Origin: Nitrospirota bacterium
Lineage (GTDB): Bacteria; Nitrospirota; Thermodesulfovibrionia; Thermodesulfovibrionales; UBA1546
DNA length: 64,000 nucleotides
Direction: 5' to 3'
Assembly: GCA_016208915.1 (NCBI GenBank)
Contig: JACQXE010000037.1
Location: forward strand, 4,905-68,904
Shown here: positions 8,514-24,753 of the stretch, piece by piece
How positions within the stretch are numbered: the stretch's first letter is position 1
Layout of the letters: every line of letters starts with the position of its first letter
Translations under genes and position numbers: made by a program
Notes under the pieces: generated by a model
Told to the model about the DNA's origin: nothing
Seen by the model: only the letters and a program-made list of their open reading frames with translations
Database searches by the model: none

Positions 8514-9026
8514 ATGAGAATAGGTGCCAGAATAAAAAACCTGCGTAGTAGCCAAAGAATTACCTTAAAGGAATTGGCAAAAAGGGCAGATCTCTCTATA
8601 AGTTTTGTCTCTCAGGTTGAGAGGGAAAAGACCTCGCCTTCCTTAGATTCTTTGAGTAAGATTGGTTCTGCCTTAGGGGTAAGTTTGGCACATCTTTTTT
8701 CACAAAGGCAAATCAAAGAAATCATCTTTATTAAAAAAAAGAAAAAGAAGATGCCTTTTTATTTTTCTGTTTTTAATGAGGCATTGGGGATAAAGATGAA
8801 GCCTTTGATTTTGGATTTAAAAGAAAAGGATGTAATCTTTGAGGGAAAAGGAAGAGGAGAAGAATTTGGATACGTGATTAAAGGAGAGATAGAGTTAGAG
8901 ACAAAAGGAGAAAAAGTTATTTTAAATGAAGGAGACAGTGTATATCTTATTAACCCTTTAAGGCACAAATTGGAAAATCTAAGCAACAAAAATTCTGTGG
9001 TTATTTGGGTTATGACAGGAAAATAA
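8514..9026 (+). CDS. XRE-family HTH transcriptional regulator with a C-terminal cupin-like domain
   Basis: N-terminus IKNLRSSQRITLKELAKRADLSISFVSQVEREKTSPSLDSLSKIGSALGV matches HTH_3. C-terminus GYVIKGEIELETKGEKVILNEGDSVYL is cupin-like. Confidence 0.75.
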   Translation: MRIGARIKNLRSSQRITLKELAKRADLSISFVSQVEREKTSPSLDSLSKIGSALGVSLAHLFSQRQIKEIIFIKKKKKKMPFYFSVFNEALGIKMKPLILDLKEKDVIFEGKGRGEEFGYVIKGEIELETKGEKVILNEGDSVYLINPLRHKLENLSNKNSVVIWVMTGK

Positions 9027-9050
9027 TTATTTCTTGTTAAGGAGGTGCAG

Positions 9051-9392
9051 ATGATAAAAGAAAGGAGGGAAAGCCCTCGAATAAAGAAAAGTTTTCCTGT
9101 CTATTGTACTTCTGTTGGTAAAGGTCTTCTGGGGAAAGGGATTGGGCGTAATATTAGCAGGGAAGGTTTGGGTATTGAAATAGAGTCCTCTTTTTCTTTA
9201 GGAGAAGATGTGAAGATGGAAATATACTTACCTTCTGGCAAAAAAACATTTTATTCCATTGAACTTATTGGTAAGGTTGTTTGGGCAAGGAAGAATAATG
9301 AATCTCGAAGAGATTTTTGTAATAACTATTTTATGGGAGTAAGATTTTTGGAGATAGACAAAGAAATCAATGAAAGGTTAGTTTCATTATAA
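9051..9392 (+). CDS. PilZ domain protein (putative c-di-GMP receptor)
   Basis: RRESPR...(N)ISREGLG matches the PilZ RxxxR / D/NxSxxG signature. AAGGAGG lies 5 nt upstream of ATG 9051 (the track start at 9045 is a GTG). Confidence 0.7.
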   Translation: MIKERRESPRIKKSFPVYCTSVGKGLLGKGIGRNISREGLGIEIESSFSLGEDVKMEIYLPSGKKTFYSIELIGKVVWARKNNESRRDFCNNYFMGVRFLEIDKEINERLVSL

Positions 9393-9463: not shown

Positions 9464-9571
9464 TGTTTTGGGATTGGCGCTTATAAAGAGTGAATTTAAA
9501 CCCGTTAAAAATGCCAAAGTCTTAGAGAAAACAAGATTTCTAACGGGTAAACAAGAAAGGAGGTGAATATC

Positions 9572-9778
9572 ATGGCAGTGGAAAAAGCAATAGGTTCTTC
9601 CAGCTTGGTAGAAGTTATTGACAGAATCCTGGATAAGGGCGTTGTGATTGATGCCTGGGTAAGGGTCTCCTTAGTTGGTATTGAAATACTCGCTATTGAG
9701 GCAAGAGTAGTTGTGGCATCAGTTGAGACCTATCTGAAATATGCTGAGGCGATTGGTTTGACTGCAACAGCAGCGTAG
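9572..9778 (+). CDS. gvpA: gas vesicle structural protein GvpA
   Basis: [63 protein letters not shown] is the canonical GvpA sequence. GGAGG lies 8 nt upstream of ATG 9572. Confidence 0.97.
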
Positions 9779-9946: not shown

Positions 9947-10741
9947 ATGAAAGCAATGCCCTTAGCAGAAGATATGAATCCCGTTAGACATTCCGAAGAT
10001 AAGGAAATGACTATATCAAAGGAAAAGACTTTGCATATGTCTAACGGGATGAAAGATATTGTCAATGATATGATTTTCTCTTATGAGGCAAGGATCCAGA
10101 GCATGGAAGCTATTTTTGATGCTACCCATCAAATCCTCCAGGGTTTCCAAGATTCCTTCCTTGATGCAAGACAAGAGGAAAAACTTACCTCTGAACTACG
10201 GGAGACTCTTGCCAAAGACAAGTCTCTAAGAAAGAAGGATTTTGACAATATGATGCAGGGTATTCTTTCAGCTCAAGAGGAGAGGAAAAAGGAAGTAAGG
10301 AATTTGTTAAAAGGTTATCTTAATGGACAGAAAGAGGTAGCACAGACTTTAAAAGATAATCTGGCTAAGGTCAAAGATGTCCTTGTCAGAGGTGAGACTG
10401 GAAGGGTCAAAGAATTCCAAGGCTTGATTAAAGAGATTCTTGCTAAACAAGATGAAAGAAAAGATGAAGTTACCTCTAAGCTGAAAGAGTTTCAAAAAGA
10501 GCAACATGAGATGGCAAAAAGACTCAAAGAACTTTTAACAAAGGGAAGAGAGCTTCGGATAAAGGATCTCAAATTAATGCTTAAGGAATTCAATGCCCAA
10601 TATAAAGAGCGGATAGCCTGCCAGAAAGAAAGAAGGGAAGATGTTTGCAGTATGCTGGGTGAGTTTAAGAAAGAAAGAATAAAAAAGGTGCGGAGGAGTA
10701 AAACCCCCTTTAGAGAGGAACTTATTAATCTAACGGAGTAA
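9947..10741 (+). CDS. Lys/Glu-rich coiled-coil repeat protein, paralogous at its N-terminus to the next ORF (putative gas-vesicle-associated scaffold); start uncertain (possibly ATG 10037)
   Basis: It shares the motif I(F/T)SYE(A/E)R...(A/D)TH..L.GF with ORF 10793. Internal degenerate repeats include ILSAQEERKKEVRNLLKGY, ILAKQDERKDEVTSKLKEF and FNAQYKERIACQKE. Confidence 0.6.
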   Translation: MKAMPLAEDMNPVRHSEDKEMTISKEKTLHMSNGMKDIVNDMIFSYEARIQSMEAIFDATHQILQGFQDSFLDARQEEKLTSELRETLAKDKSLRKKDFDNMMQGILSAQEERKKEVRNLLKGYLNGQKEVAQTLKDNLAKVKDVLVRGETGRVKEFQGLIKEILAKQDERKDEVTSKLKEFQKEQHEMAKRLKELLTKGRELRIKDLKLMLKEFNAQYKERIACQKERREDVCSMLGEFKKERIKKVRRSKTPFREELINLTE

Positions 10742-11387: not shown

Positions 11388-12302
11388 ATGATTGATGAGA
11401 TGACTACGGTATTGGAGCCGAGTCCTCTGCCAGACTTTGTGGAGACAAAGTATATCAAGGATATCACTAAGAGGGCACTTGACTATATAAAGGCAGGTTT
11501 TCCAGTCCATTTTAGAGGGGTATCCGGTTCCGGCAAGACTACGTTGGCTATGCACATAGCAAGTAAGATTAAAAGGCCGATGGTAATGATTCATGGAGAT
11601 GAAGAATTCACAACCTCTGATCTTGTAGGTGGTGAATATGGTTACAGAATCAGAAAGGTTGTAGACAGATTTATCTCACGGGTATTAAAAACAGAAGAGG
11701 ATATGGTAAAGCGCTGGGTGGATAACCGTCTGACCGTTGCCTGTAAGTATGGATTTACCTTGATATATGATGAATTTACACGTTCAAGGCCAGAGGCAAA
11801 TAATATCCTTCTTTCTATTTTACAGGAGAAGATGATGGATTTGCCGGTAGGAAGAGGCGGTGAGGAACCATATTTAAGAGTAGATCCAAATTTTACTGCT
11901 ATTTTTACATCTAATCCTGAGGAATATGCCGGTGTCCACAGGAGCCAGGATGCCTTAAGGGACAGAATGATAACCATGGACTTAGACCACTTTGACTATG
12001 ATACAGAGGTCGCAATAACTCAGGCGAAATCTAAACTTTCTAAAAAGGATTCTGAGAAAATAGTGAATATTGTAAAAGGTTTAAGAGAATCCGGGAAGTG
12101 CGAGTTTGCTCCAACTATTCGCGGATGTATTATGATTGCAAAAACCCTTAAAGTTCAGGGTATCACTCCTACAAGTGCCAATGGCGCCTTTATGCCGATT
12201 TGCCAGGATATATTGGCCTCTGAGACGAGCAGGATTGGCTCAAAGACGAATCAGAGCAGGGTAAAAGAGACAGTTAAGGAGTTGGTTGAGAAGTATAGTT
12301 AG
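11388..12302 (+). CDS. gvpN: gas vesicle protein GvpN (AAA+ ATPase)
   Basis: 304 aa. Walker A GVSGSGKTT, Walker B LIYDEF, GvpN-like length, and position after gvpA and the C-like genes. Confidence 0.85.
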   Translation: MIDEMTTVLEPSPLPDFVETKYIKDITKRALDYIKAGFPVHFRGVSGSGKTTLAMHIASKIKRPMVMIHGDEEFTTSDLVGGEYGYRIRKVVDRFISRVLKTEEDMVKRWVDNRLTVACKYGFTLIYDEFTRSRPEANNILLSILQEKMMDLPVGRGGEEPYLRVDPNFTAIFTSNPEEYAGVHRSQDALRDRMITMDLDHFDYDTEVAITQAKSKLSKKDSEKIVNIVKGLRESGKCEFAPTIRGCIMIAKTLKVQGITPTSANGAFMPICQDILASETSRIGSKTNQSRVKETVKELVEKYS

Positions 12303-12503: not shown

Positions 12504-12809
12504 ATGAAAGGAATGTTGCAGATACCCGGCATTAAAGATATAAAAAGTACACATTCTGTAGGTGCACGGTCTATTCCAAAGGTACAAAGGTCAAGTTATT
12601 TAGAATTATATATGCGTAGAAGAGAGAAGGATAGATTAGAGAAAGAAATCTTCGCGTTAGATAAAAGAAGAGACACAGCGAATAGGCAATTGAACAGCAT
12701 CAATAAGCAAATTGAAAAATTACAGAAAGAAGTGCACGAAGAGCAAAAGATTAATACTTATAGAGGGATACCTACAAGGCCGCTTAAGACAATGGCTATA
12801 AATTATTAA
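12504..12809 (+). CDS. small coiled-coil protein of unknown function within the gvp island
   Basis: 101 aa. SYLELYMRRREKDRLEKEIFALDKRRDTANRQLNSINKQIEKLQKE shows a heptad-like pattern. I recognise no family. Confidence 0.5.
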   Translation: MKGMLQIPGIKDIKSTHSVGARSIPKVQRSSYLELYMRRREKDRLEKEIFALDKRRDTANRQLNSINKQIEKLQKEVHEEQKINTYRGIPTRPLKTMAINY

Positions 12810-13437: not shown

Positions 13438-13977
13438 ATGGCAAAAGAAAAAAAGAAAAGGAAAGAGGAAGAAGAAGGATTGGATATTGATTTTGGCATA
13501 GGTAAATTGAGTCTGGGGGGGTTATTTAAAGGCATTGAGAATTTAGTTGACCTTGCCGCTAAGTTAAAAGAAGCAGGTGGTGAAATTAAGAAAGAAGGCG
13601 AGATTGACCTGAGCCGACTTAAAGAAGGCATGAAGGGGGTCTATGGTTTTTCAATAAAGACAGCAGTTGGCGGAAAACCGATGGTTGAGACATTTGGCAA
13701 TATCAAAAAGACACCTGAAGGACCTGTCGTAGAAGAAGAAAGAGAGCCCTTAACAGATGTGTTTGATGAGAAAGACGAAGTAGTGGTTATATCTGAAATT
13801 CCGGGAGTTCATGAGGAAGGTATATCGGTAGATTTAAAGGGGGACATACTGGAGATTTCAGCAGTGGGCAAAAGCAGAAAATATCGTAAAGAAGTCCTCC
13901 TGCCAGTGCAGGTCAAGAAGGAAACACTTTCTTATACATTTAAGAACGGTATCTTAGAAGTTAGAATTAAAAAGTGA
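13438..13977 (+). CDS. Hsp20/alpha-crystallin family small heat-shock protein with a Lys/Glu-rich N-terminal extension
   Basis: The C-terminal PLTDVFDEKDEVVVISEIPGVHEEGISVDLKGDILEISA...LPVQVKKETLSYTFKNGILEVRI matches an alpha-crystallin domain. Confidence 0.8.
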   Translation: MAKEKKKRKEEEEGLDIDFGIGKLSLGGLFKGIENLVDLAAKLKEAGGEIKKEGEIDLSRLKEGMKGVYGFSIKTAVGGKPMVETFGNIKKTPEGPVVEEEREPLTDVFDEKDEVVVISEIPGVHEEGISVDLKGDILEISAVGKSRKYRKEVLLPVQVKKETLSYTFKNGILEVRIKK

Positions 13978-14098: not shown

Positions 14099-15112
14099 GT
14101 GGATGGCATTATAAGCGGACTATTAGAGCCGTCATTGAAGCTGATTCTATTCGGCGGGAAGGGAGGTGTTGGGAAGACTACCTGCGCCGCAAGTGCAGGG
14201 CTTTATTTAGCAAACAACAATAAGAATACCTTGCTTATCTCCACTGACCCAGCACATTCTTTATCGGACAGTCTGGGCAAGGAGATTACGAATGAGATAA
14301 CGCAGATAAAAGGAGTAGATAAATTAAGTGCTATGGAGATAAGCGCGGAAAAGGCATTGTCAAGTTTCAAAGCAGAATATCAAGATGAACTGAAAAGACT
14401 CTTTGATACAAGCACTTATTTAGATAAGGAAGATATAGATTCCATACTTGAGCTGCCTATACCAGGCATAGACGAGGTAATGGGATTCAAGGTCATTGTG
14501 GATTTAATTGAAAAGGAAGAATTTGACAAATACGTAGTGGATACTGCGCCAACAGGCCATGCCCTGAGGCTTTTGACTCTGCCTGAACTCTTAGATGACT
14601 GGATAAAGGTTCTGGCAAAGATGAGATGGAAATACAGATATATGGTTACTACCTTTGCCGGTAAATACAGGCCTGACAGCGCTGATGATTTTCTTATGAG
14701 CATGAAAAAAACAGTCAAAAAAATTGAGGGGCTGCTGAAAGATGAGAACAGATGTGAATTCATAGTTGTCACGATCCCTGAGGATATGGCTATTAAAGAA
14801 ACAGAGAGGCTGATAAGAAATCTGAATCAATACGGGATGAAGGTGAAGCAGTTGATTATCAACAATGTTATTCCAGAGGGAGACAGGTGCAGTTTTTGTC
14901 AAGCGAGGAGAAAAGGCCAGGACAAATATATCAAAGAGATTAGAGATAAATTTAGCGATTTAAATATAACGGTTATTCCCCTTCAGCCCCACGAGGTAAA
15001 AGGGATAAATGCACTGAAAAACTTAGAAAGTATGATATTTAGCAAGAACGCACAATGTCACCCTGAACTTGATTCAGGGTCTAAAAGAGACGCTGAAACG
15101 AGCCTGCCCTGA
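14099..15112 (+). CDS. Get3/ArsA-family ATPase with a CxxC motif; the last ~20 codons are repeat-derived
   Basis: P-loop GGKGGVGKTT, STDPAHSLSD, DTAPTGHALRLL, and CSFCQARRKGQDKYIKEI...VIPLQPHEVKGINALKNL, which resembles the Get3 CxxC dimer-zinc region. The C-terminal HPELDSGSKRDAETSLP is the translated hairpin repeat. Confidence 0.8.
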   Translation: MDGIISGLLEPSLKLILFGGKGGVGKTTCAASAGLYLANNNKNTLLISTDPAHSLSDSLGKEITNEITQIKGVDKLSAMEISAEKALSSFKAEYQDELKRLFDTSTYLDKEDIDSILELPIPGIDEVMGFKVIVDLIEKEEFDKYVVDTAPTGHALRLLTLPELLDDWIKVLAKMRWKYRYMVTTFAGKYRPDSADDFLMSMKKTVKKIEGLLKDENRCEFIVVTIPEDMAIKETERLIRNLNQYGMKVKQLIINNVIPEGDRCSFCQARRKGQDKYIKEIRDKFSDLNITVIPLQPHEVKGINALKNLESMIFSKNAQCHPELDSGSKRDAETSLP

Positions 15113-15161
15113 AGAGATTCTGAACCAAGTTCAGAATGACACTTTCAGGGTTCAGCATGAC
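15057..15161. repeat. compound hairpin repeat element (GTCA...ATGAC family) spanning the Get3-like/Cdc48-like junction
   Basis: gtcaccctgaacttgattcagggt...gattctgaaccaagttcagaatgac...ttcagcatgac. Confidence 0.8.
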
Positions 15162-15180
15162 AATTGAGAGGTATTTTCGA

Positions 15181-17304
15181 ATGAATAATAATGAAAGTTT
15201 CATAACCTTAAAAGTAAAAGAGGCATTACCTAAAGATGTGGGAAGGGCGATAGTTAGAATAGACCCTGAGGATATGAAAAAATTGGGGGTTGAGGTAGGC
15301 GAGATTATAGAGATTAGCGGTAAAAGGCAAACACCAGCCAAGGTAATGCCCTGCTATGCCGAAGAAAGGAACAAAGGGATTATTCAGATAGATGGAATAA
15401 CAAGGGAAAATGCACAGATCGGGATAGATGAAAAGGTAAAGATTCAAAAAGTAAAAGCTAAGCCGGCAAGTAAGATTACATTAGTGCCTCTGAACATATC
15501 AGGTCTTATGAATAAGGATAAGGATATTAAGTATATCGGTTCATTGATCGGAGGGCTTCCACTGACTGTCGGCGATAGGATTAGAGCCAGTCTTTTTGGG
15601 GCAAGAGCCTGTGACTTCAAAGTAGTAGATACAATTCCTGATGGGGTTGTGCTTATCGAGCCCACAACTCTAATCAAGATAAAAGATAAAGGAACAAAAG
15701 ATATAAAAGAGACACGTATATCCTATGAGGATATAGGCGGACTCCACACTCAGATTCAGAGAATCAGAGAGATGATTGAACTCCCACTTAAATACCCTCA
15801 GATTTTTGAAAGATTGGGGATTGGCGCGCCCAAAGGGGTTTTTTTATACGGCCCTCCAGGCACTGGTAAGACTCTGATAGCACGGGCAGTAGCGAATGAG
15901 ACAGAGGCATATTTTACTCATATATCAGGACCTGAAATAATGGGCAAATTTTATGGTGAGAGTGAAGCCCGCTTAAGAAGTGTATTTGAAGATGCGCAAA
16001 AACATGCCCCTGCCATAATCTTTATTGATGAGATAGACGCCATTGCCCCTAAGAGAGAAGAGATGGGCGGAGAGAAGCAGGTTGAGCGGAGGGTTGTGGC
16101 TCAGCTCTTAGCACTGATGGATGGATTAGAATCAAGGGGTGAGGTTATAGTTATAGCTGCAACCAATATCCCTAATGTTATAGACCCGGCATTGAGGCGG
16201 CCGGGTAGATTTGATAGAGAAATTTCAATTCCTATACCCGACAGAAATAGCAGACTCGAGATACTCCAAATTCATACAAGGGGGATGCCCCTATCAGAAG
16301 ATGTAAGTCTTGAAAAGTTAGCCGATATTACCCATGGATTTGTTGGAGCAGACTTAGAGGCATTAGCCAGAGAAGCAGCGATGTCGGCTTTAAGAAAAAT
16401 TCTACCTGAGATCGATTTTGAGCTGGCAGATATTCCTTATGAAACACTCATGGAGCTTCAAGTGACTATGGATAATTTCTTAGAAGCCATGAAAGAGGTT
16501 GAACCATCAGCAATTAGAGAATTTTTTGTAGAGGTGCCTGATGTCAAATGGGAGGATGTGGGTGGTCTTGAGAATATTAAAGAGGAACTAAAGGAGGCAA
16601 TTGAATGGCCTCTTAAATATTCTGATATTTTTAAAAAGGCAGGCACAAATCCTCCTAAGGGAATTTTACTCTATGGAGTTCCTGGTACAGGTAAAACCCT
16701 TTTAGCCAAAGCAGTGGCTAATGAGAGTGGAGTGAATTTCATCTCAGTCAAAGGACCGAGTTTGATATCGAAGTATGTCGGCGAAAGTGAGCGTGGAATC
16801 CGTGAGGTCTTTAAAAAGGCAAAGCAGGCATCACCTACAATCCTATTTTTTGATGAGATAGACAGCCTTGTTCCCAAAAGGGGTTCAGGAGGCTCTGATT
16901 CTCAGGTAACAGAACGAGTGATAAGCCAATTCCTGACTGAGATGGATGGAATTGAAGAACTTAAGGGCGTGGTAGTTTTAGCCGCTACTAATAGATTAGA
17001 CCTGATTGACCCTGCTATCTTACGCAGCGGCAGATTTGACCTTTTGCTTGAGTTGCCTGTGCCTGATGAAAAAACGAGAGAAGAAATATTCAGAATACAT
17101 ACTGAAAATAAACCGCTGGCTGATGACGTTGATTTGAAAGAGTTAGCTAAAGAGACTGAAGGTAAGGTGGGCTCTGATATTGAGTTTATCTGTCGGAAGG
17201 CTTCTATGTTGGCGATAAGAGAGTTTATAGAGCACCGGCAAAATTTAAAGTTTTTGAGAAAGCATTTTCAAGATGCTATCAAGTTAATCCAAAGGGAGGT
17301 TTAA
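15181..17304 (+). CDS. Cdc48/VAT-type double AAA+ ATPase (N-domain + D1 + D2)
   Basis: Cdc48-N-like [42 protein letters not shown]. Two Walker A motifs, GPPGTGKTL and [12 protein letters not shown] 15181 with a GAGAGG SD is preferred, because the track start at 15136 lies inside the repeat. Confidence 0.9.
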
Positions 17305-17485
17305 AATAGCAAAGATTATTGAGAAGATTAAGAATTTCTTCAAAGGCAAAAAGAAAGAAGAGCCTAAAGCCCAACAGGAAAAACCTAAAACAGAAGAGAA
17401 GCCTGAAGAACAAAAATAGTAGAAAAGAATAAAAGGATCACTAAAAGGGGAGGGTGGATAATCCTCTCGATATAAATTTTTGATA

Positions 17486-18511
17486 ATGGCTGAAATAGAA
17501 GGTATATATATCTACGGTATTGTTGATACTGCAGGAGAGAAAAGTCTCGGCATTGCTGGAATCACTGCGTATGGAGAGGTCTATACAATTCCACATCAGG
17601 ATATTTCTGCGGTTGTAAGTGATTCACAATTTGTAGATTACACCGCTCTTTCTAAGGATCGAGTTGCAAGATATCTTCTTGCTCACCAGCAGGCAATAGA
17701 GAAGATTATGGATTCTCATACCATTATTCCTGTGAAGCTCGGCACTTATGCCTTTAATATCAGAGAGGTAGAGGAGATTTTATCAAAGGGATACACAATG
17801 TTTAAAGATGTATTCAGGACGATCAATAACAAGATTGAGATTGATGTGGTAGCAACATGGAACGATTTGAATTCAGTAATTAAAGAGATCGGCGAAGACG
17901 AAAAGATTAAAGAGCTTAAAGAAAAGCTGATGTCTAAGCCTGAAGGTATATCTCTTGAAGACCAAATGAAGATAGGCAGTCTCATTAAGGATATTTTATA
18001 TATAAAGAGAGAAAAACTTGCCTCTGAAATAGGGACTGTATTAAGAAAGGTGAGTATAGATTCAAGGGCACATGGTCTTATGGATGACAGGATGATCTTT
18101 AATGCCGCCCTTCTTATAGATAAGGATAAAAGGGCTGAATTAGAGAAAGGATTAGATGAGATGAATGGGTTGTACAATGAAAAAATAGATTTTAAATGTG
18201 TTGGCCCTTTACCTCCATATAGTTTTTACACTGTAGAGGTTAAGAAGATCCCTTTTGGTGAGATAGATTGGGCAAAAGAAAAATTGGGCATTGATAACAT
18301 ACCAACAAAGGAAGATATCATAAAAGCATACCGCAGCAAAGCCAACTTATATCATCCAGATAAGAACAGAGGCGCTTCGGATGCAGACAGGCAATTTAAT
18401 GAAGTATTCAGGGCGTACAAAATCCTCCTTGAATACTGTCAAGAAGAAACTTGTTCATTTGATGAAAAAGAGTTCGGTCAAGATGCCATCATTGTAAAGA
18501 TAAGAGATTAA
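17486..18511 (+). CDS. GvpF/GvpL family protein fused to a C-terminal J-domain (DnaJ-like, HPD motif)
   Basis: N-terminus IYIYGIVD...ISAVVSD...HQQAIEKIMDSHTIIPVKLGT...FNAALLIDK...GPLPPYSF matches GvpL/F. C-terminus TKEDIIKAYRSKANLYHPDKNRGASDADRQFNEVFRAYKILLEY is a J-domain. Confidence 0.85.
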   Translation: MAEIEGIYIYGIVDTAGEKSLGIAGITAYGEVYTIPHQDISAVVSDSQFVDYTALSKDRVARYLLAHQQAIEKIMDSHTIIPVKLGTYAFNIREVEEILSKGYTMFKDVFRTINNKIEIDVVATWNDLNSVIKEIGEDEKIKELKEKLMSKPEGISLEDQMKIGSLIKDILYIKREKLASEIGTVLRKVSIDSRAHGLMDDRMIFNAALLIDKDKRAELEKGLDEMNGLYNEKIDFKCVGPLPPYSFYTVEVKKIPFGEIDWAKEKLGIDNIPTKEDIIKAYRSKANLYHPDKNRGASDADRQFNEVFRAYKILLEYCQEETCSFDEKEFGQDAIIVKIRD

Positions 18512-18515
18512 TATT

Positions 18516-19280
18516 ATGGAACAGGAAGGTAAATATATCTATTGCATTATTGCCACAAAACAGGAAAGGAATTTTGGACCCATTGGTATAGGTGGTGAGG
18601 AGATTTTAACTATTGGTCATGAGGATCTAAGCATGGTTGTGAGTAATCATCCTATGACTAAATTTGTGGTAAATCGCGAAAATATGTTAGCTCATGAGAA
18701 GGTAATTGAGGAGGTGATGAAGGAGTTTGATAGTGTGCTTCCAGTTAGATTCGGCACTATTGCCTCTAATGCCGATGAGTTAAGAAATCTATTAGATAGA
18801 AGATACAGAGAATTTAAGAACCTTCTAAGAGATATGGACCATAAGATAGAACTTGGCGTCAAGGGGATATGGAAGAACATGGATGTAATCTTTAAAGAAG
18901 TTGTAGACGAGAATAAAGCAATTAAGAGAACAAAAGAGGATATTCAGAACGACAAGAATAAGAAAAATATTCAGGCCAAAATGGAAGTAGGCAAGATGGT
19001 GGAGAAGGACCTGGAAAAGAAGAAAGAGAAAGAGGCGGAAAGAATCGTAGATGTATTGAGAAGAACAGCCTTTGACTATAAACTTAATAAGACTATTAGT
19101 GATGGGATGTTTATAAATGCCGCCTTTTTGGTGGATAAAGGCAGGGGAAAAGAATTTGATAACGTAATGGATGATCTGAGTGAAAAATATAAGGACAGAA
19201 TAAAGTTTATGTACGCCGGACCCCTGCCTGTCTTTAATTTTGTCAACATTGTTATTTATCCTGAGAGATGGGAGGAATAG
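18516..19280 (+). CDS. GvpF/GvpL family gas vesicle protein
   Basis: KYIYCII...LSMVVSN...HEKVIEEVMKEFDSVLPVRFGT...INAAFLVDK...AGPLPVFNF. Confidence 0.85.
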   Translation: MEQEGKYIYCIIATKQERNFGPIGIGGEEILTIGHEDLSMVVSNHPMTKFVVNRENMLAHEKVIEEVMKEFDSVLPVRFGTIASNADELRNLLDRRYREFKNLLRDMDHKIELGVKGIWKNMDVIFKEVVDENKAIKRTKEDIQNDKNKKNIQAKMEVGKMVEKDLEKKKEKEAERIVDVLRRTAFDYKLNKTISDGMFINAAFLVDKGRGKEFDNVMDDLSEKYKDRIKFMYAGPLPVFNFVNIVIYPERWEE

Positions 19281-19283
19281 TTT

Positions 19284-19790
19284 ATGTTATCAGGGACAGA
19301 AGCAGATATTATAAATACTGTTGCCAGATTAAAAGAGGCAACCAAGGACCAACTAAGAAAAGAGGTAGGTTTTTCTTCAGATTATATTAGCTATTTATGT
19401 GGATATTTGGTCAGAAAAGGTTATCTAAATTTTTCTGATGGGCATTATTCTCTGGCAAGGATGGAAATAAAGACTTTGCGGAGAGAAGATACACAGATCG
19501 ACAGGGAGTTAATCAAAGAGATTGCCAATGAGGTTGCTGGAGAGCTCAGTGGTAAGTTAAGAAAAACAGTAAAAGAGATAAAAATACCGGTTGCACAGAT
19601 AAGGCAGAAAGCAAAACAGATACCAGAAGAAAAAATAAATCCCGATTTTGAATTTCCTGTAGAGGATGAAAGTTTAGCCTTAGAAAGTAATATCAATAAA
19701 ATAGGGCCAAACTTAGAAAAAGAGAAATCTAACATTGACAGGTTAGTGAAATTATTTAAAAAAATTCAAAAGAGATGGAGGAAAAGATGA
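19284..19790 (+). CDS. winged-helix (MarR/TrmB-like) N-terminal domain protein, putative regulator
   Basis: EADIINTVARLKEATKDQLRKEVGFSSDYISYLCGYLVRKGYL is wHTH-like. The C-terminal half is charged. Confidence 0.5.
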   Translation: MLSGTEADIINTVARLKEATKDQLRKEVGFSSDYISYLCGYLVRKGYLNFSDGHYSLARMEIKTLRREDTQIDRELIKEIANEVAGELSGKLRKTVKEIKIPVAQIRQKAKQIPEEKINPDFEFPVEDESLALESNINKIGPNLEKEKSNIDRLVKLFKKIQKRWRKR

Positions 19791-20881
19791 ACAATGGGAA
19801 TGAAGAAAAGGAGACAAAGGACATTAAAGGACAAAAAGGTAAGGGAGTTGATATAGGGACAGTATTTGTAAAGTGTGCGTACACAGATAGTGATGAAGTC
19901 ATATTCAAGTCGCAGCGAAACGCCTTCTTTGAAGTAGAATATGCAGGTTTTACTATTACTAAGAAGATATTCGATGACCGTGGAATAAAATATGTTATAA
20001 AAGACGATAAACTTTATGTTGTAGGCAATGATACATTACAATTTGCCAATATATTTAATAAAGAGACAAGAAGGCCCCTAAGTAATGGTGTGATTAGTTC
20101 AACAGAAAAAGAGGCCCTTCCTATAGTAGAACTATTGATAAAGAGCGTGGTGGGTGAGCCTGCTGTCAAAGATGAGATAGTCTACTTTTCCGTCCCGGGT
20201 GAGCCTCTGGATGCAGATTTTAATATCATATATCATATAAAGACCCTTGAAGGATTCCTAAAGACTCTCGGTTATACCCCAAAGCCGATAAATGAAGCCC
20301 TGGCGGTTATATTATCCGAGTTAGCCGATAAAGACTTTACCGGAATCGGCATTTCTTTTGGTGGCGGGATGGTCAATGTCTGCCTGAGTTTTATGTCTGT
20401 GCCCATTTTTAAGTTTTCGGTTATCAGGGCAGGTGACTGGATAGACCAGCAGGTCGCTATGGCAGTGGATGAGGCAGCCACCCGTGTATCAGCGATAAAG
20501 GAATTCTCTCTTAATTTGAGTAGGGAAAAAGAATTAGGCAAGATAGAAAACGCCCTCTCCATATATTACAATGACCTCATTGGGTATGTAATTGAACATA
20601 TAAAGCAGGAGCTTGATAAGGCAGGGGGAGGGCCTGCTATGGCTAAGCCTGTAACTATTGTCCTATCTGGAGGTACTTCACTTCCCAAGGGTTTTGCCCA
20701 TAGGTTTAAACAGATTTTGGATCATTTGAAATTCCCTATTCCAGTTGGCGAGGTAAGGATGGCAGCACAACCTTTAAGTTCGGTAGCTAAGGGAGCATTG
20801 ATTGCTGCAAGGTCAGAAGGGGATAATAGTCAAACATCTGCTTCTAATAGGGCAAATGGAAGCATCCTTGAAAGAAGGTAA
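19775..20881 (+). CDS. actin/Hsp70-fold (ASKHA superfamily) ATPase, MreB/ParM-like size
   Basis: Phosphate-1 GVDIGTVFVK, phosphate-2 GIGISFGGGMVNV, and adenosine motif IVLSGGTSLPKGF. 368 aa. Confidence 0.7.
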   Translation: MEEKMNNGNEEKETKDIKGQKGKGVDIGTVFVKCAYTDSDEVIFKSQRNAFFEVEYAGFTITKKIFDDRGIKYVIKDDKLYVVGNDTLQFANIFNKETRRPLSNGVISSTEKEALPIVELLIKSVVGEPAVKDEIVYFSVPGEPLDADFNIIYHIKTLEGFLKTLGYTPKPINEALAVILSELADKDFTGIGISFGGGMVNVCLSFMSVPIFKFSVIRAGDWIDQQVAMAVDEAATRVSAIKEFSLNLSREKELGKIENALSIYYNDLIGYVIEHIKQELDKAGGGPAMAKPVTIVLSGGTSLPKGFAHRFKQILDHLKFPIPVGEVRMAAQPLSSVAKGALIAARSEGDNSQTSASNRANGSILERR

Positions 20882-21625: not shown

Positions 21626-21862
21626 GTGCTTTTAATAGACGACCTGTTGCTATTACCGTTTAAAGGGCTGGCGGGCGTATTTAAAAAGATCCATGAAATG
21701 GCAGATAGGGAATTGTCTGACGAGGATTATATTAGAGAAAGGCTCATGGAACTACAGTTAAGATTTGAGTTGGATGAGCTCAGCGAGGAAGAATATATAA
21801 AACAGGAAAAAGGACTAATGGCACGTTTAGATACCATTAGAAAAGTAAAAGAGGAGGTGTGA
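21626..21862 (+). CDS. gvpG: gas vesicle protein GvpG
   Basis: LLIDDLLLLPFKGLAGVFKKIHEMADRELSDEDYIRERLMELQLRFELDELSEEEY is the typical GvpG sequence. Confidence 0.85.
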   Translation: MLLIDDLLLLPFKGLAGVFKKIHEMADRELSDEDYIRERLMELQLRFELDELSEEEYIKQEKGLMARLDTIRKVKEEV

Positions 21863-21864
21863 AG

Positions 21865-22128
21865 ATGGCTAATATAGAAGACGCCAGGAAAGTAGTTAGC
21901 GATTTTTTAAAAAAGACTTTGGACGTAAAAGACGTAAAGGTTTTTGAGGCAACAAAGAATGGCGAAGGCTGGGATTTCGAGGCAGAAATATATGAGGAGA
22001 GTTCATTTATAAAGTCCCTTGGCCTTCCCACGAGAGTGCTGGATAGGAATATCTATGAGGTTAAACTGGATGATAATTTAGAAGTCCAATCCTATGGACG
22101 CAAGGGACAATCAAAAACAACTGAATGA
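21865..22128 (+). CDS. gvpO: gas vesicle protein GvpO-like
   Basis: GEGWDFEAEIYEES...RNIYEVKLDDNLEVQSYGR follows the GvpO pattern (EGW...vEv.E...YE..LD....v..Y.R). A GGAGG SD lies 7 nt upstream of ATG 21865. Confidence 0.65.
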   Translation: MANIEDARKVVSDFLKKTLDVKDVKVFEATKNGEGWDFEAEIYEESSFIKSLGLPTRVLDRNIYEVKLDDNLEVQSYGRKGQSKTTE

Positions 22129-23033
22129 TGTCGGCTCATGAGAAGGTGACGGGGATGAGGGAAAAATTAATATATGTTTATTGTGTTAGTCACAAAGAAC
22201 CGAATTTTAAAGATTCAGATTTAGGTAACTCCCACACCAAAATTTTTGGTGTGAGGGTTTACCCTATTTGCCACCAGGACCTTTATGCTGTGGTTAGTAA
22301 GGTTTCAGAGGATGAATTTACTGAGGAAAACTTAAAGAAGAATTTGTCCGATATGAAGTGGGTAGAGTCTAATGTCTTGAGGCATGAGGAAGTAATTGAA
22401 GAGATAATGAGAGATTGCACTGTTATTCCGTTTAAATTCGCCACTATTTTTAAGACAGAGGAAAATGTAAAGGCTTTGCTTGAAGAACACACCGAGGAAT
22501 TTAAAAAAAGTCTTGAGGGATTAGAAGGCAAAGAAGAATGGGGCATTAAGGTGTATTGTAATATTGATATTCTAAAGACAAATCTTATAAAGGAAAATGA
22601 GGAAATAAAAAGGATGGAGCAGGATATTAAATTGTCTTCTGCTGGCAAGGCTTATTTATTAATGAAAAAGAGGGATGGGTTAATAGAAAGTATTCTAAAT
22701 AAGAAAATCAATGAGTATGGTCAGGATATTTTTGAAGAACTTAATGCACTAAGCAGAGATACACGCATCAATAAACTATTGCCGAAAGAAGTAACTGAGC
22801 AAAAAGATGAGATGATCCTGAATGCTGCCTTTTTGATTGATACATGCAAAATCATAGTGTTTATTGATACTGCAATTTTTCTAAAGGAAAAATATAAAGA
22901 TAAGGGGCTCAACCTTAATTGCACAGGTCCCTGGCCCCCTTATAATTTCTGTTCGATAAACCCCATTAGTAGTGGGAGAGATTCAAATCTGTTTGAGACT
23001 CCTAAGGGGGTAAAGAAGGAAAAGGCAATATGA
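22125..23033 (+). CDS. GvpL/GvpF family gas vesicle protein
   Basis: LIYVYCV...LYAVVSKV...HEEVIEEIMRDCTVIPFKFAT...LNAAFLID...GPWPPYNF. Confidence 0.8.
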   Translation: MMSAHEKVTGMREKLIYVYCVSHKEPNFKDSDLGNSHTKIFGVRVYPICHQDLYAVVSKVSEDEFTEENLKKNLSDMKWVESNVLRHEEVIEEIMRDCTVIPFKFATIFKTEENVKALLEEHTEEFKKSLEGLEGKEEWGIKVYCNIDILKTNLIKENEEIKRMEQDIKLSSAGKAYLLMKKRDGLIESILNKKINEYGQDIFEELNALSRDTRINKLLPKEVTEQKDEMILNAAFLIDTCKIIVFIDTAIFLKEKYKDKGLNLNCTGPWPPYNFCSINPISSGRDSNLFETPKGVKKEKAI

Positions 23034-23710
23034 GCAGTGTTGTCCTGGAATCTAAGAATATAACCTTAGTAGAAACCCTAGACAGGGTGCTAAATAAAGG
23101 GGTAATTCTGAGCGGAGATATTACAATTTCTGTTGCTGATGTGGATTTAATCTTTGTAGGGTTGAAGGTATTACTTGCCTCTGTCGAGACAGCCGAGAAA
23201 ATGCGTTTAGGATATAAAAATGATAGGTGGAATGGGAAAAATGGCGAAACGAAGAATGAAAATACATCACCCTCCCCTCTATCCCCTCCCGTCAAGGGAG
23301 GGGAGTTTATGAGAGGCCCCTCTCCCTTGGCGGTCGCCTCATTCTCCTCAGCGAACCCGCCTGAGTGCGGGGGCGACTCGTCGAGGAGAGGAGAGGGCAA
23401 GGGTGAGGGGAGATTTTCGGAGCAACCCAAAGAGATAAAGGCAGTTCTCCCGAGAATTGATGCCGAGCCAGAAAAGGTTGAGCAAGGGCTATCAAAATTA
23501 GTATTAACTCTTATAGACTTGCTCAGAAAACTTATGGAGAAACAGGCTATAAGAAGAATAGACGGGGGTTCTCTTTCTGACAACGAGGTAGAAAAGCTTG
23601 GATATACGTTTATGAGATTAGAAAATAAGATGGAAGAGTTAAAAAAGGTATTTGGGCTTAAGGATGAAGACCTGAACTTAAACTTAGGTCCCTTAGGGGA
23701 TTTGATGTGA
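23030..23710 (+). CDS. fusion ORF: GvpA-like (GvpS/J/M-type) N-domain, then a GC-rich repeat-derived linker, then a GvpK-like C-domain
   Basis: N-domain: LVETLDRVLNKGVILSGDITISVADVDLIFVGLKVLLASVETAEKM. C-domain: EKVEQGLSKLVLTLIDLLRKLMEKQAIRRIDGGSLSDNEVEKLG...DLNLNLGPLGDL, the GvpK signature. I found no ATG/GTG/TTG in frame just upstream of the K part. Confidence 0.75.
   Translation: MSSVVLESKNITLVETLDRVLNKGVILSGDITISVADVDLIFVGLKVLLASVETAEKMRLGYKNDRWNGKNGETKNENTSPSPLSPPVKGGEFMRGPSPLAVASFSSANPPECGGDSSRRGEGKGEGRFSEQPKEIKAVLPRIDAEPEKVEQGLSKLVLTLIDLLRKLMEKQAIRRIDGGSLSDNEVEKLGYTFMRLENKMEELKKVFGLKDEDLNLNLGPLGDLM
23266..23414. repeat. GC-rich nested-palindrome repeat block inserted in frame inside the GvpA-like/GvpK ORF
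   Basis: tcaccctcccctctatcccctcccgtcaagggagggg...cccgcctgagtgcggg...gagggcaagggtgaggggag. It contrasts sharply with the AT-rich flanks and translates to SPSPLSPPVKGGE...GEGKGEG. Confidence 0.75.
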
Positions 23711-23742: not shown

Positions 23743-24048
23743 ATGGCTGAACAACAGCTGGCGCATGCTATACAGGCGACTAATTTGGCTGACATCTTAG
23801 AGCGGGTACTGGATAAGGGAATCGTTATTGCCGGGGATATCAAGATAAGCCTGGCTGATGTTGAACTTCTGAATATCAAGATAAGACTTTTGATTGCCTC
23901 GGTTGATAAGGCTATGGAGATGGGCATCAATTGGTGGCAGCAGGATCCTTATTTATCTACAAAGGCAAGAGAAGCTGAAATAGAAAAAGAGAACGCATCT
24001 CTAAAAAAGAGATTAGAACGTTTGGAAGCAAAGATAAAGGCGAAATAA
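23743..24048 (+). CDS. gvpJ: gas vesicle protein GvpJ (GvpA family)
   Basis: LADILERVLDKGIVIAGDIKISLADVELLNIKIRLLIASVDKAMEMGINWWQQDP. Confidence 0.85.
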   Translation: MAEQQLAHAIQATNLADILERVLDKGIVIAGDIKISLADVELLNIKIRLLIASVDKAMEMGINWWQQDPYLSTKAREAEIEKENASLKKRLERLEAKIKAK

Positions 24049-24066: not shown

Positions 24067-24753
24067 ATGAGAACGCTGATTTATGTCCCGGTTATACATA
24101 CCAGCGCTGACCTTGGCTCTTTGGCAGGGGATGTGATAAAAAGAGGAATCGCTGATTTAGGAGGAGAGGTTTGGAAAGAACATCAAAGAACAGTTGAAGG
24201 CCTTTGGGATGCCATATCCCATTATTTTGATTCTATAGATATATCAGGAATGAAAATATATCAGGATGGGATGATAGCAGAAGGTGAGATGGGACAGAAA
24301 ATAGTTGAAGAGGGCATAAAATCAGGAAGTAGAAATTATGAAGTAATCGCAAAGCTACTACAAAAAGGAGCCATTTTAATTAAGACAGAGGACCTTAAGC
24401 TTGTCAAGGGAGAACGTGATATGTTACTTGCCATAACACAGGCAAAGTCAATACTTGAGAAATTAATCACACTTATGAAATATAAATTAGTCAAAAATAG
24501 ACTTTTAAACAAAAGAGATAAATTTATTGCCAAAAGGATAGATGAAACTTTAAAGGATGGCGAGACAGGAATCATTTTTATCGGCGCATACCATAATATT
24601 AAGAAGTGGCTCCCTAAAGACATTCAAATTAAAGAGATAAAAGATATGGATAAAGTAAAGGAATATCAGATGCTACTTCCTTTTTATAATAAGGATCAAA
24701 AGCGGTTTGAGGAGCTGGGTAGATACCTTGTCTCGAAAATAAACCTGTCCTGA
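24067..24753 (+). CDS. hypothetical protein, last gene of the gvp island
   Basis: 228-aa ORF on the same strand, 18 nt after gvpJ. I recognise no family. Confidence 0.5.
   Translation: MRTLIYVPVIHTSADLGSLAGDVIKRGIADLGGEVWKEHQRTVEGLWDAISHYFDSIDISGMKIYQDGMIAEGEMGQKIVEEGIKSGSRNYEVIAKLLQKGAILIKTEDLKLVKGERDMLLAITQAKSILEKLITLMKYKLVKNRLLNKRDKFIAKRIDETLKDGETGIIFIGAYHNIKKWLPKDIQIKEIKDMDKVKEYQMLLPFYNKDQKRFEELGRYLVSKINLS

Follow-up and report, generated by a model that had tools for sequence, protein, structure and literature searches.

Introduction

In Halobacterium, GvpF is described as the sole direct binder of the gas vesicle shell protein GvpA and GvpL as the protein that attracts all accessory Gvps (PMC7688916). 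A study on Bacillus megaterium presents GvpF as the primary partner of GvpA2 and proposes, as a recent idea, that it is a chaperone for the hydrophobic face of this protein (PMC11445434). Binding to GvpA or to accessory Gvps and a need for these proteins in gas vesicle formation are known only for the haloarchaeal and Bacillus homologues (PMC7688916, PMC11445434). The characterized GvpF and GvpL proteins (Microcystis, 4QSG; Anabaena, 6L5D) are ~250 amino acids long, have a two-lobed alpha/beta fold and end after a GPLPxYxF strand. The protein under study here shares their profile and fold over residues 6-248, but continues into a J-domain and a conserved tail. It is encoded within a 64-kb stretch of DNA from a Nitrospirota bacterium (contig JACQXE010000037.1), referred to below as the window, by a complete open reading frame (ORF) on the + strand (17486..18511; 341 amino acids plus stop). 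We refer to it as the fusion.

Class C J-proteins are the second group of described systems that the fusion resembles. Auxilin/GAK works at the clathrin lattice, HscB/Jac1 at the Fe-S scaffold, DjlA at the membrane, Sec63/Pam18 at translocons and Mycoplasma TopJ at the terminal organelle. Like these proteins, the fusion combines a J-domain bearing the HPD tripeptide with an unrelated targeting or client-binding domain, and its chain likewise lacks the G/F region, the zinc finger and the DnaJ C-terminal domains, whose absence marks class C off from classes A and B. As for auxilin and TopJ, its target would be a large self-assembling protein structure. It differs from the class in having a C-terminal J-domain that is joined without a linker, no helix IV and a tail containing a beta-strand.

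With regard to gene clusters, Castillo and Saier (2010; PMC2963123) reported ArsA and Hsp20 in clusters with gvpN, L, F, G, J, K and M, those of Pelodictyon and Polaribacter being examples, and mentioned no J-domain, Hsp70 or CDC48. The window cluster adds CDC48 and the J-domain fusion to that inventory, and sister clusters of the same type further add a dedicated Hsp70. For one cluster of this kind, a paper on Ca. Hakubella gives hsp20 and the gvp genes and mentions neither DnaK nor a J-domain. In a full-text literature search, neither a Gvp fused to a J-domain nor a gvp-linked Hsp70 was found described, although most subscription journals were outside its coverage and an earlier mention is possible; nor was CDC48 described in gvp clusters in the literature searched. 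An earlier note on this DNA, made from the sequence alone, knew of no description of such a fusion, and the literature search bears this out, though the architecture is abundant in sequence databases. The use of GvpF/L as the targeting domain of a J-protein, the linker-less C-terminal placement of the J-domain and the conserved strand tail are new as far as the literature searched shows. We regard the fusion as a robust, widespread and so far unremarked link of gas vesicle biogenesis to the Hsp70 machinery, and not as a new principle.

Why does such a link matter? It bears on how the very hydrophobic GvpA stays soluble, is delivered and is inserted into the growing vesicle, and on what source of energy is used. 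Expression of gas vesicles in Escherichia coli causes proteotoxic stress, which limits heterologous production (PMC12848028). A J-domain attached to GvpF/L in more than 15 phyla, together with a dedicated Hsp70 in sister clusters, amounts to a hard-wired genetic link to the Hsp70 system.

A GvpF/L protein with a C-terminal J-domain

The frame of the fusion is open throughout, from the ATG at 17486 to the stop codon at 18509-18511. A TTG lies in frame at 17480, and the ATG is favored as start because homologues begin MAE... or ME.K.... A deposited Nitrospirae protein from a metagenome-assembled genome (MAG), here P0001, matches it with 100% identity. An assembly or frameshift artefact was considered and excluded, as the frame is unbroken and the two-domain architecture recurs in hundreds of homologues; in the database, where this architecture is abundant, they are named only ‘GvpL/GvpF family gas vesicle protein’.

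Pfam finds two domains in the chain, GvpL_GvpF and DnaJ, and no other. The first (PF06386; residues 6-248, 17501..18229, + strand) scores 181.4 bits against a cut-off of 23.6 (E 4e-53) and matches profile positions 1-244 of 245. In a PDB sequence search the N-terminal part matched GvpF 4qsg (3e-12) and 6l5d (1e-10), and Foldseek aligned the N-terminal model with 6l5d and 4qsg at E 2.6e-14 and a target template modelling (TM) score of 0.73-0.81 over ~248 columns. The earlier note had recognized GvpL/GvpF hallmarks in the N-terminal ~260 residues; profile, fold and conservation concur, and the peptide strings that it quoted are all in the translation. Assigning the domain specifically to GvpF or to GvpL was attempted and dropped, its scores on the two NCBIfam models being low and similar (72 and 65 bits, respectively).

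The second domain, DnaJ (PF00226), is matched by residues 267-315 with 47.5 bits against a cut-off of 27.8 (E 1.9e-12; profile positions 6-54 of 63). Residues 265-326 matched the J-domains of E. coli DnaJ in a PDB sequence search (1bqz, 3e-7; 5nro_B, 6e-7). In an AlphaFold2 model built on 56 homologues (predicted local distance difference test 88.1, predicted TM score 0.78) helix I spans residues 257-267, helix II 275-289 and helix III 300-317, which places the domain at residues 257-317 (18254..18436, + strand). The last strand of the GvpF/L fold (249-255) passes directly into helix I with no linker. Foldseek superposes this part on more than 30 solved J-domains, the DnaK-bound 5nro_B among them, with a root-mean-square deviation of 1.1-1.5 Å over ~52 residues. 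The HPD tripeptide (H290, P291 and D292; 18353..18361, + strand) sits in the loop between helices II and III; these two helices and HPD are the elements of a J-domain that contact Hsp70. By Pfam score, PDB sequence matches and predicted fold, the domain is a genuine J-domain. A helix II-HPD-helix III module had been read here in the earlier note, which proposed a profile search and a structure prediction as checks. The segment passes the Pfam cut-off and is predicted to fold as J-domain helices I-III, so that this reading holds by profile, fold and conservation; what had to be corrected is its extent, as helix I is also present and the span is ~257-317.

Compared with DnaJ, a class A protein, the fusion aligns to positions ~4-60, and Y25, H33, P34, D35 and F47 of DnaJ correspond to Y282, H290, P291, D292 and F304. 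DnaJ equivalog models of NCBIfam score far under their cut-offs (for example 43.6 bits versus 377), with only the first ~55-60 positions matching, because the likeness to DnaJ is confined to the J-domain. The zinc-finger motif of DnaJ, CxxCxGxG, was found in no real reading frame of the window, the fusion included.

Residues 318-341 (CQEETCSFDEKEFGQDAIIVKIRD; 18437..18508, + strand) make up a tail in place of helix IV, defined by the alignment consensus and a predicted strand. Its consensus in the alignment of 56 sequences is EYCxGDxCSFxExEFxxNAIxVKVR. The terminal strand, AIIVKIR, is hydrophobic and basic and looks like a DnaK-binding motif; it might be a pseudo-substrate or a latch that regulates Hsp70 engagement. 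A metal site made of Cys238, Cys318 and Cys323 was also considered and rejected, as it is kept only in the subfamily of at least 50% identity, with all three cysteines present in 15 of 139 distant representatives.

Conservation and spread of the fusion

How general is this architecture? A homologue search gave 693 proteins at E <= 1e-5, and the domains and the HPD motif were checked in the best 120 of these (50-100% identity). PF06386 and PF00226 were both present in 120/120 and HPD was kept by 120/120; other GvpL_GvpF+DnaJ architectures, for which the earlier note had suggested a database search, thus do exist. Across the 56 aligned sequences A263, H290, P291, D292, F304 and A310 are invariant (56/56), and mean pairwise identity is similar for the J-domain (55%) and the GvpF/L core (61%). 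On this comparison the HPD motif is under selection, because it is invariant in the 56 sequences and the conservation of J-domain and GvpF/L core is comparable.

The pattern extends to remote relatives. An exhaustive HMMER search over 1.84 billion representatives clustered at 50% identity yielded 308 matches at E <= 1e-30. The J-domain was aligned in nearly all of the best 150 of these, down to 30% identity, and HPD was present in 131 of 139 full-length representatives (94%), again down to 30% identity. The eight without it comprise one QPD, which is the classical inactive variant of HPD, four degenerate J-like domains, two apparently frameshifted sequences and one substituted loop. Distant homologues that lack HPD and keep a J-like domain and the tail are P0303, P0343, P0354, P0360, P0384 and P0270.

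A scan of one genome per species, with search patterns placed in the GvpF/L domain, detected a relative of the fusion in 193 species-level genomes from more than 15 phyla. The carriers include Nitrospirota, Nitrospinota, Omnitrophota, Planctomycetota (Pirellulales, Phycisphaerae), Ignavibacteria and Melioribacteraceae, as well as Latescibacter, Syntrophus, Atribacteria, Kiritimatiellaeota, Sumerlaeota, Actinomycetota and Desantis-, Sagan- and Edwardsbacteria. Every one of the carriers listed (80 of the 193) is a MAG or a single-amplified genome (SAG). The J-domain was present in 83 of 84 loci that were fetched, and the exception (L080) ends at a contig edge; since the scan patterns lay in the GvpF/L domain, this frequency is a real observation. 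The fusion is, judging by this distribution, old and widespread, and the scan brings to light a large family of gvp clusters, unstudied so far, whose hosts are uncultured anaerobes.

An Hsp70 in sister clusters

Related clusters provide a view of the probable partner. In four of the related loci (L076, L079, L081 and L082) the 3' end of the cluster carries, in the same orientation, the gene of a DnaK homologue that is 45-50% identical to the nucleotide-binding domain of E. coli DnaK. The DnaK start codon of L081 (19742) overlaps the preceding Gas_vesicle-domain gene (stop at 19745). All parts of an Hsp70 are present in its 578-amino acid product (P0121), namely the nucleotide-binding domain, the linker (VLLDVTPLSLG), the beta substrate-binding domain and the lid, and among PDB entries P0121 matches Geobacillus DnaK best (E 4e-198). 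The 120 closest relatives of P0121 (66-100% identity) are all ~560-620 amino acids long. Six family members were sampled across 67-100% identity, one from a Nitrospirota MAG, one from Ca. Hakubella thermalkaliphila (Actinomycetota) and four from metagenomic contigs. Each of these short DnaKs (570-590 amino acids) has its gene at the 3' end of a gvp cluster, and neither grpE nor dnaJ stands beside it in any of the six, which sets them apart from the DnaK/DnaJ/GrpE system; in five of the six a GvpF/L-J fusion with an intact HPD is found <=10 kb upstream. The short DnaK genes lie at 19742-21004 in L081, 10001-11737 in L085 and about 10001-11761 in L086-L090. From their placement and domain content, the family members appear to be Hsp70s dedicated to gas vesicles. 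One MAG, JAZDOR, carries both cluster types (L030 and L076).

A further component of the Hsp70 system occurs in these clusters. Of 91 related loci, 39 encode a small protein in which the DnaJ-type zinc-finger motif CxxCxGxG occurs six times (for instance at 3530-3853 in L003 and at 12625-13119 in L085); this protein is absent from the window cluster. The zinc finger that DnaJ carries in its own chain is thus supplied as a separate protein in many related gvp clusters. On the comparative evidence, the clusters repeatedly unite pieces of the Hsp70 system, and the constant piece is the J-domain on GvpF/L. The earlier suggestion that the fusion would bring an Hsp70 to gas vesicle assembly is independently supported by comparative genomics, because the HPD-bearing fusion co-occurs with a complete, cluster-encoded Hsp70 in sister clusters.

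A proposed model for chaperone-assisted gas vesicle assembly

On ATP-bound Hsp70, a J-domain with HPD binds where nucleotide-binding domain, linker and beta substrate-binding domain meet, and it triggers the hydrolysis by which Hsp70 locks the client that the remainder of the J-protein has brought (5NRO). We know of no partner of an HPD-bearing J-domain except Hsp70. Taking together the domain identities, the fold, the conservation of HPD, the gene context and the co-occurrence with a dedicated Hsp70, all of which are observed, we consider it probable that the C-terminus of the fusion is an Hsp70-activating J-domain acting on Gvp clients. It is likewise probable, on the same comparative grounds, that the fusion is a gas vesicle-specific class C (type III) J-domain co-chaperone. 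The GvpF/L body would be the client- or organelle-binding module, probably for GvpA-family proteins. The J-domain, rigidly joined to this body, would dock on ATP-bound Hsp70 and trigger ATP hydrolysis, upon which Hsp70 would clamp the GvpA-family client held on the GvpF/L module. The Hsp70 would be housekeeping DnaK in this organism and the dedicated 3'-end Hsp70 in sister clusters. Binding to Hsp70 and stimulation of its ATPase, the identity of the client and a role in assembly rather than disassembly are the steps that we infer.

The fusion would not act alone. Its partners may be the proteostasis set of the cluster, that is Hsp20, an ArsA/Get3-like ATPase and the CDC48 AAA+ unfoldase, which the DnaJ-type zinc-finger protein would join in those relatives that encode it. 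Such a set could keep the aggregation-prone, amphipathic shell protein competent for assembly or remodel it at the growing vesicle. A more ambitious version, which we put forward tentatively and would not bet on, is a self-contained proteostasis line of the organelle that comprises the small heat-shock protein, an ArsA/Get3-like holdase-ATPase, Cdc48, the J-domain fusion, the zinc-finger protein and, in one branch, its own Hsp70, and whose ATP-driven cycles would both deliver GvpA and extract it from collapsed shells. If this is true, GvpA is put into the shell by ATP-driven chaperone cycles and not by spontaneous self-assembly, and the J-domain fusion is the ‘auxilin’ of a prokaryotic protein organelle.

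What are the implications of a J-domain on GvpF/L? The fusion and the Hsp70 of sister clusters point to a chaperone-driven step in the building of gas vesicles that would be new to the literature. The repertoire of specialized J-proteins gains a new targeting domain. For acoustic reporter genes, the clusters offer new engineering parts in the form of the J-domain fusion co-expressed with its Hsp70, CDC48 and ArsA. The model also makes testable predictions for HPD point mutants, for ATPase stimulation and for client transfer.

A number of observations weigh against the proposed role. Using tblastn with the nucleotide-binding domain of E. coli DnaK, no Hsp70 was found in the window (best E 0.55), so that the Hsp70 partner in this genome is an assumption; housekeeping DnaK, encoded elsewhere, is most likely to fill this place, and stays the likely partner because the 64 kb contain no Hsp70. 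On the reference GvpF/GvpL models the fusion scores under the second and third GvpF/L paralogues of the window and is the most divergent of the three that were scored, so that its binding to GvpA is extrapolated from other paralogues. AlphaFold2 does not predict a helix IV, and the conserved tail with its strand at 334-340 stands in its stead. The eight of 139 representatives that dispense with HPD and keep the domain hint at an additional structural role. Finally, gas vesicle formation by these clusters is itself a prediction, the listed carriers being MAGs and SAGs throughout.

Other roles for the J-domain

Could the same machinery serve removal instead? The fusion might recruit Hsp70 in the manner of auxilin and mark collapsed or misassembled GvpA lattices for dismantling, with Hsp70, the adjacent CDC48 and Hsp20 extracting subunits for recycling or degradation. 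Small heat-shock protein, Hsp70/J-protein and AAA+ ATPase form the classical disaggregation triad. The composition of the clusters is that of such a disaggregation machine, in that Hsp20 is almost always present and nearly every long locus has CDC48 as the protein-coding gene directly 5' of the fusion. The arrangement of the fusion gene points the other way, as it is set amid the biogenesis genes for GvpF/L, G, J and K in a single co-directional and tightly spaced array, and GvpF-type proteins are described as early-acting, on new GvpA, in the two interaction studies (PMC7688916, PMC11445434). No sequence feature tells assembly from disassembly. Overall, we consider dismantling instead of building to be rather unlikely, while it is the best placed of the alternatives to a co-chaperone for assembly.

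The C-terminal module might also be a structural J-like domain that works without Hsp70 and docks CDC48, another Gvp or the shell, its HPD being a structural feature. Several of the features described above would fit this idea, namely the eight of 139 distant representatives that retain domain and tail without HPD, the lack of an Hsp70 in clusters of the window type, the near-invariant adjacency of CDC48 and the conserved strand in place of helix IV. J-like domains, however, typically lose HPD. Here HPD, F304 and A310 show little or no variation in 94% of lineages, which is the signature of Hsp70-active J-domains, and in sister clusters the fusion is accompanied by a dedicated Hsp70. We therefore judge a purely structural module to be improbable and retain the J-domain as a probable Hsp70-activating one.

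A regulatory function, in which the fusion titrates DnaK and so couples gas vesicle synthesis to the cell's heat-shock or proteostasis state, is very unlikely. In many bacteria heat-shock regulators are controlled by the availability of DnaK, and helix-turn-helix (HTH)-cupin and PilZ regulators flank the cluster. Against this stand the retention of the full conserved GvpF/L fold, the location of the fusion gene among structural and assembly genes and the dedicated Hsp70s of sister clusters, which argue for a working chaperone cycle.

The last candidate partner lies within the window. The earlier note had offered the ASKHA protein encoded at 19775..20881 (+ strand) as an alternative to DnaK and had placed its gene two genes downstream of the fusion; it is in fact the third gene downstream, with two genes between. 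Its 368-amino acid product is an actin-like ASKHA protein of the Volactin family (Pfam PF25216, E 1.3e-93). The HSP70 profile (PF00012) has no match in 19775-20881, the best match being PF25216 with weak similarity to MreB and MamK. The interdomain linker and beta substrate-binding domain constitute much of the J-domain binding site on Hsp70 (5NRO), and this protein has neither. By tblastn, Volactin is encoded in 10 of 84 loci (12%) and its winged-helix partner in 15 of 84, as against 83 of 84 for the J-domain; because of these low frequencies, the pair is an optional module. That the J-domain stimulates the ATPase of this protein is scarcely credible for these reasons, even though it shares the actin/Hsp70 fold superfamily, its gene is three downstream of the fusion and a winged HTH-Volactin pair stands directly upstream of the fusion in L076. 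By analogy with MamK, the Volactin and winged-helix pair could form a filament that positions gas vesicles.

The gas vesicle cluster of the window and related loci

The fusion gene is part of a ~16-kb gvp cluster that is encoded on the + strand throughout; gvpA, the genes for GvpN, G, J/K and an A-like protein and three more GvpF/L genes share its strand. The window cluster proteins were run by tblastn on the 84 related loci, 40 of which are >= 15 kb. In these 40, gvpA was found in 40, GvpN in 38, Hsp20 in 39, ArsA in 34 and CDC48 in 38. Among related loci, too, the fusion always belongs to a large gvp cluster rich in chaperone genes; the order Hsp20-ArsA-CDC48-fusion hardly varies among them, and CDC48 is the protein-coding gene immediately 5' of the fusion in nearly all long ones. 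Further GvpF/L genes and genes for G, O-like, J and K follow after the fusion in cluster order.

Upstream of the fusion, the window cluster contains gvpA (9563..9778), whose translation is typical of GvpA, the major shell protein and presumed client. It is followed by genes for two coiled-coil proteins (starts at 9947 and 10793), a GvpN-type AAA_5 ATPase (11388..12302; Pfam AAA_5, E 1.8e-18) and two small proteins (starts at 12504 and 13040). The members of the putative proteostasis set come next, with an Hsp20/GvpH-like small heat-shock protein (13438..13977; Pfam HSP20 and GvpH, both barely above their cut-offs), an ArsA/Get3-family ATPase (14099..15112; Pfam ArsA_ATPase, E 1.9e-90) and a CDC48-type double AAA+ ATPase (15136..17304; Pfam CDC48_N, CDC48_2 and two AAA domains).

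The second GvpF/L gene (18516..19280; Pfam E 9.8e-63), whose product has no J-domain, begins 4 nt past the stop codon of the fusion. A weak winged-helix protein of 168 amino acids (19284-19790) and the Volactin-family protein follow, and then a third GvpF/L (start at 20802), GvpG (start at 21626), a GvpO-like protein (start at 21859) and a fourth GvpF/L (start at 22125). A second fusion, GvpJ-GvpK (23030-23710; 226 amino acids), has a Gas_vesicle domain (GvpJ-like) at residues 12-50 and GvpK at 142-226; the two parts are separate adjacent genes in L001 and L003. A GvpA-like protein (start at 23743) and a 228-amino acid protein (start at 24067) complete the + strand series.

Directly upstream of gvpA stand the genes for the HTH-cupin regulator (8514-9026) and a PilZ-domain protein (9045-9392), both on the + strand. 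In relatives, PilZ proteins close the cluster (17576-18937 in L001 and 17909-18247 in L003). The presence of PilZ at gvp clusters hints at a control of buoyancy by cyclic di-GMP.

Between CDC48 and the fusion lies a conserved gene for a Lys-rich micropeptide (IAKIIEKIKNFFKGKKKEEPKAQQEKPKTEEKPEEQK; 17306-17419, + strand). It is preceded by a GGGAGG Shine-Dalgarno sequence at 17294-17299, and the window reads ATA in place of the ATG of L001, L003, L007, L012 and L021.

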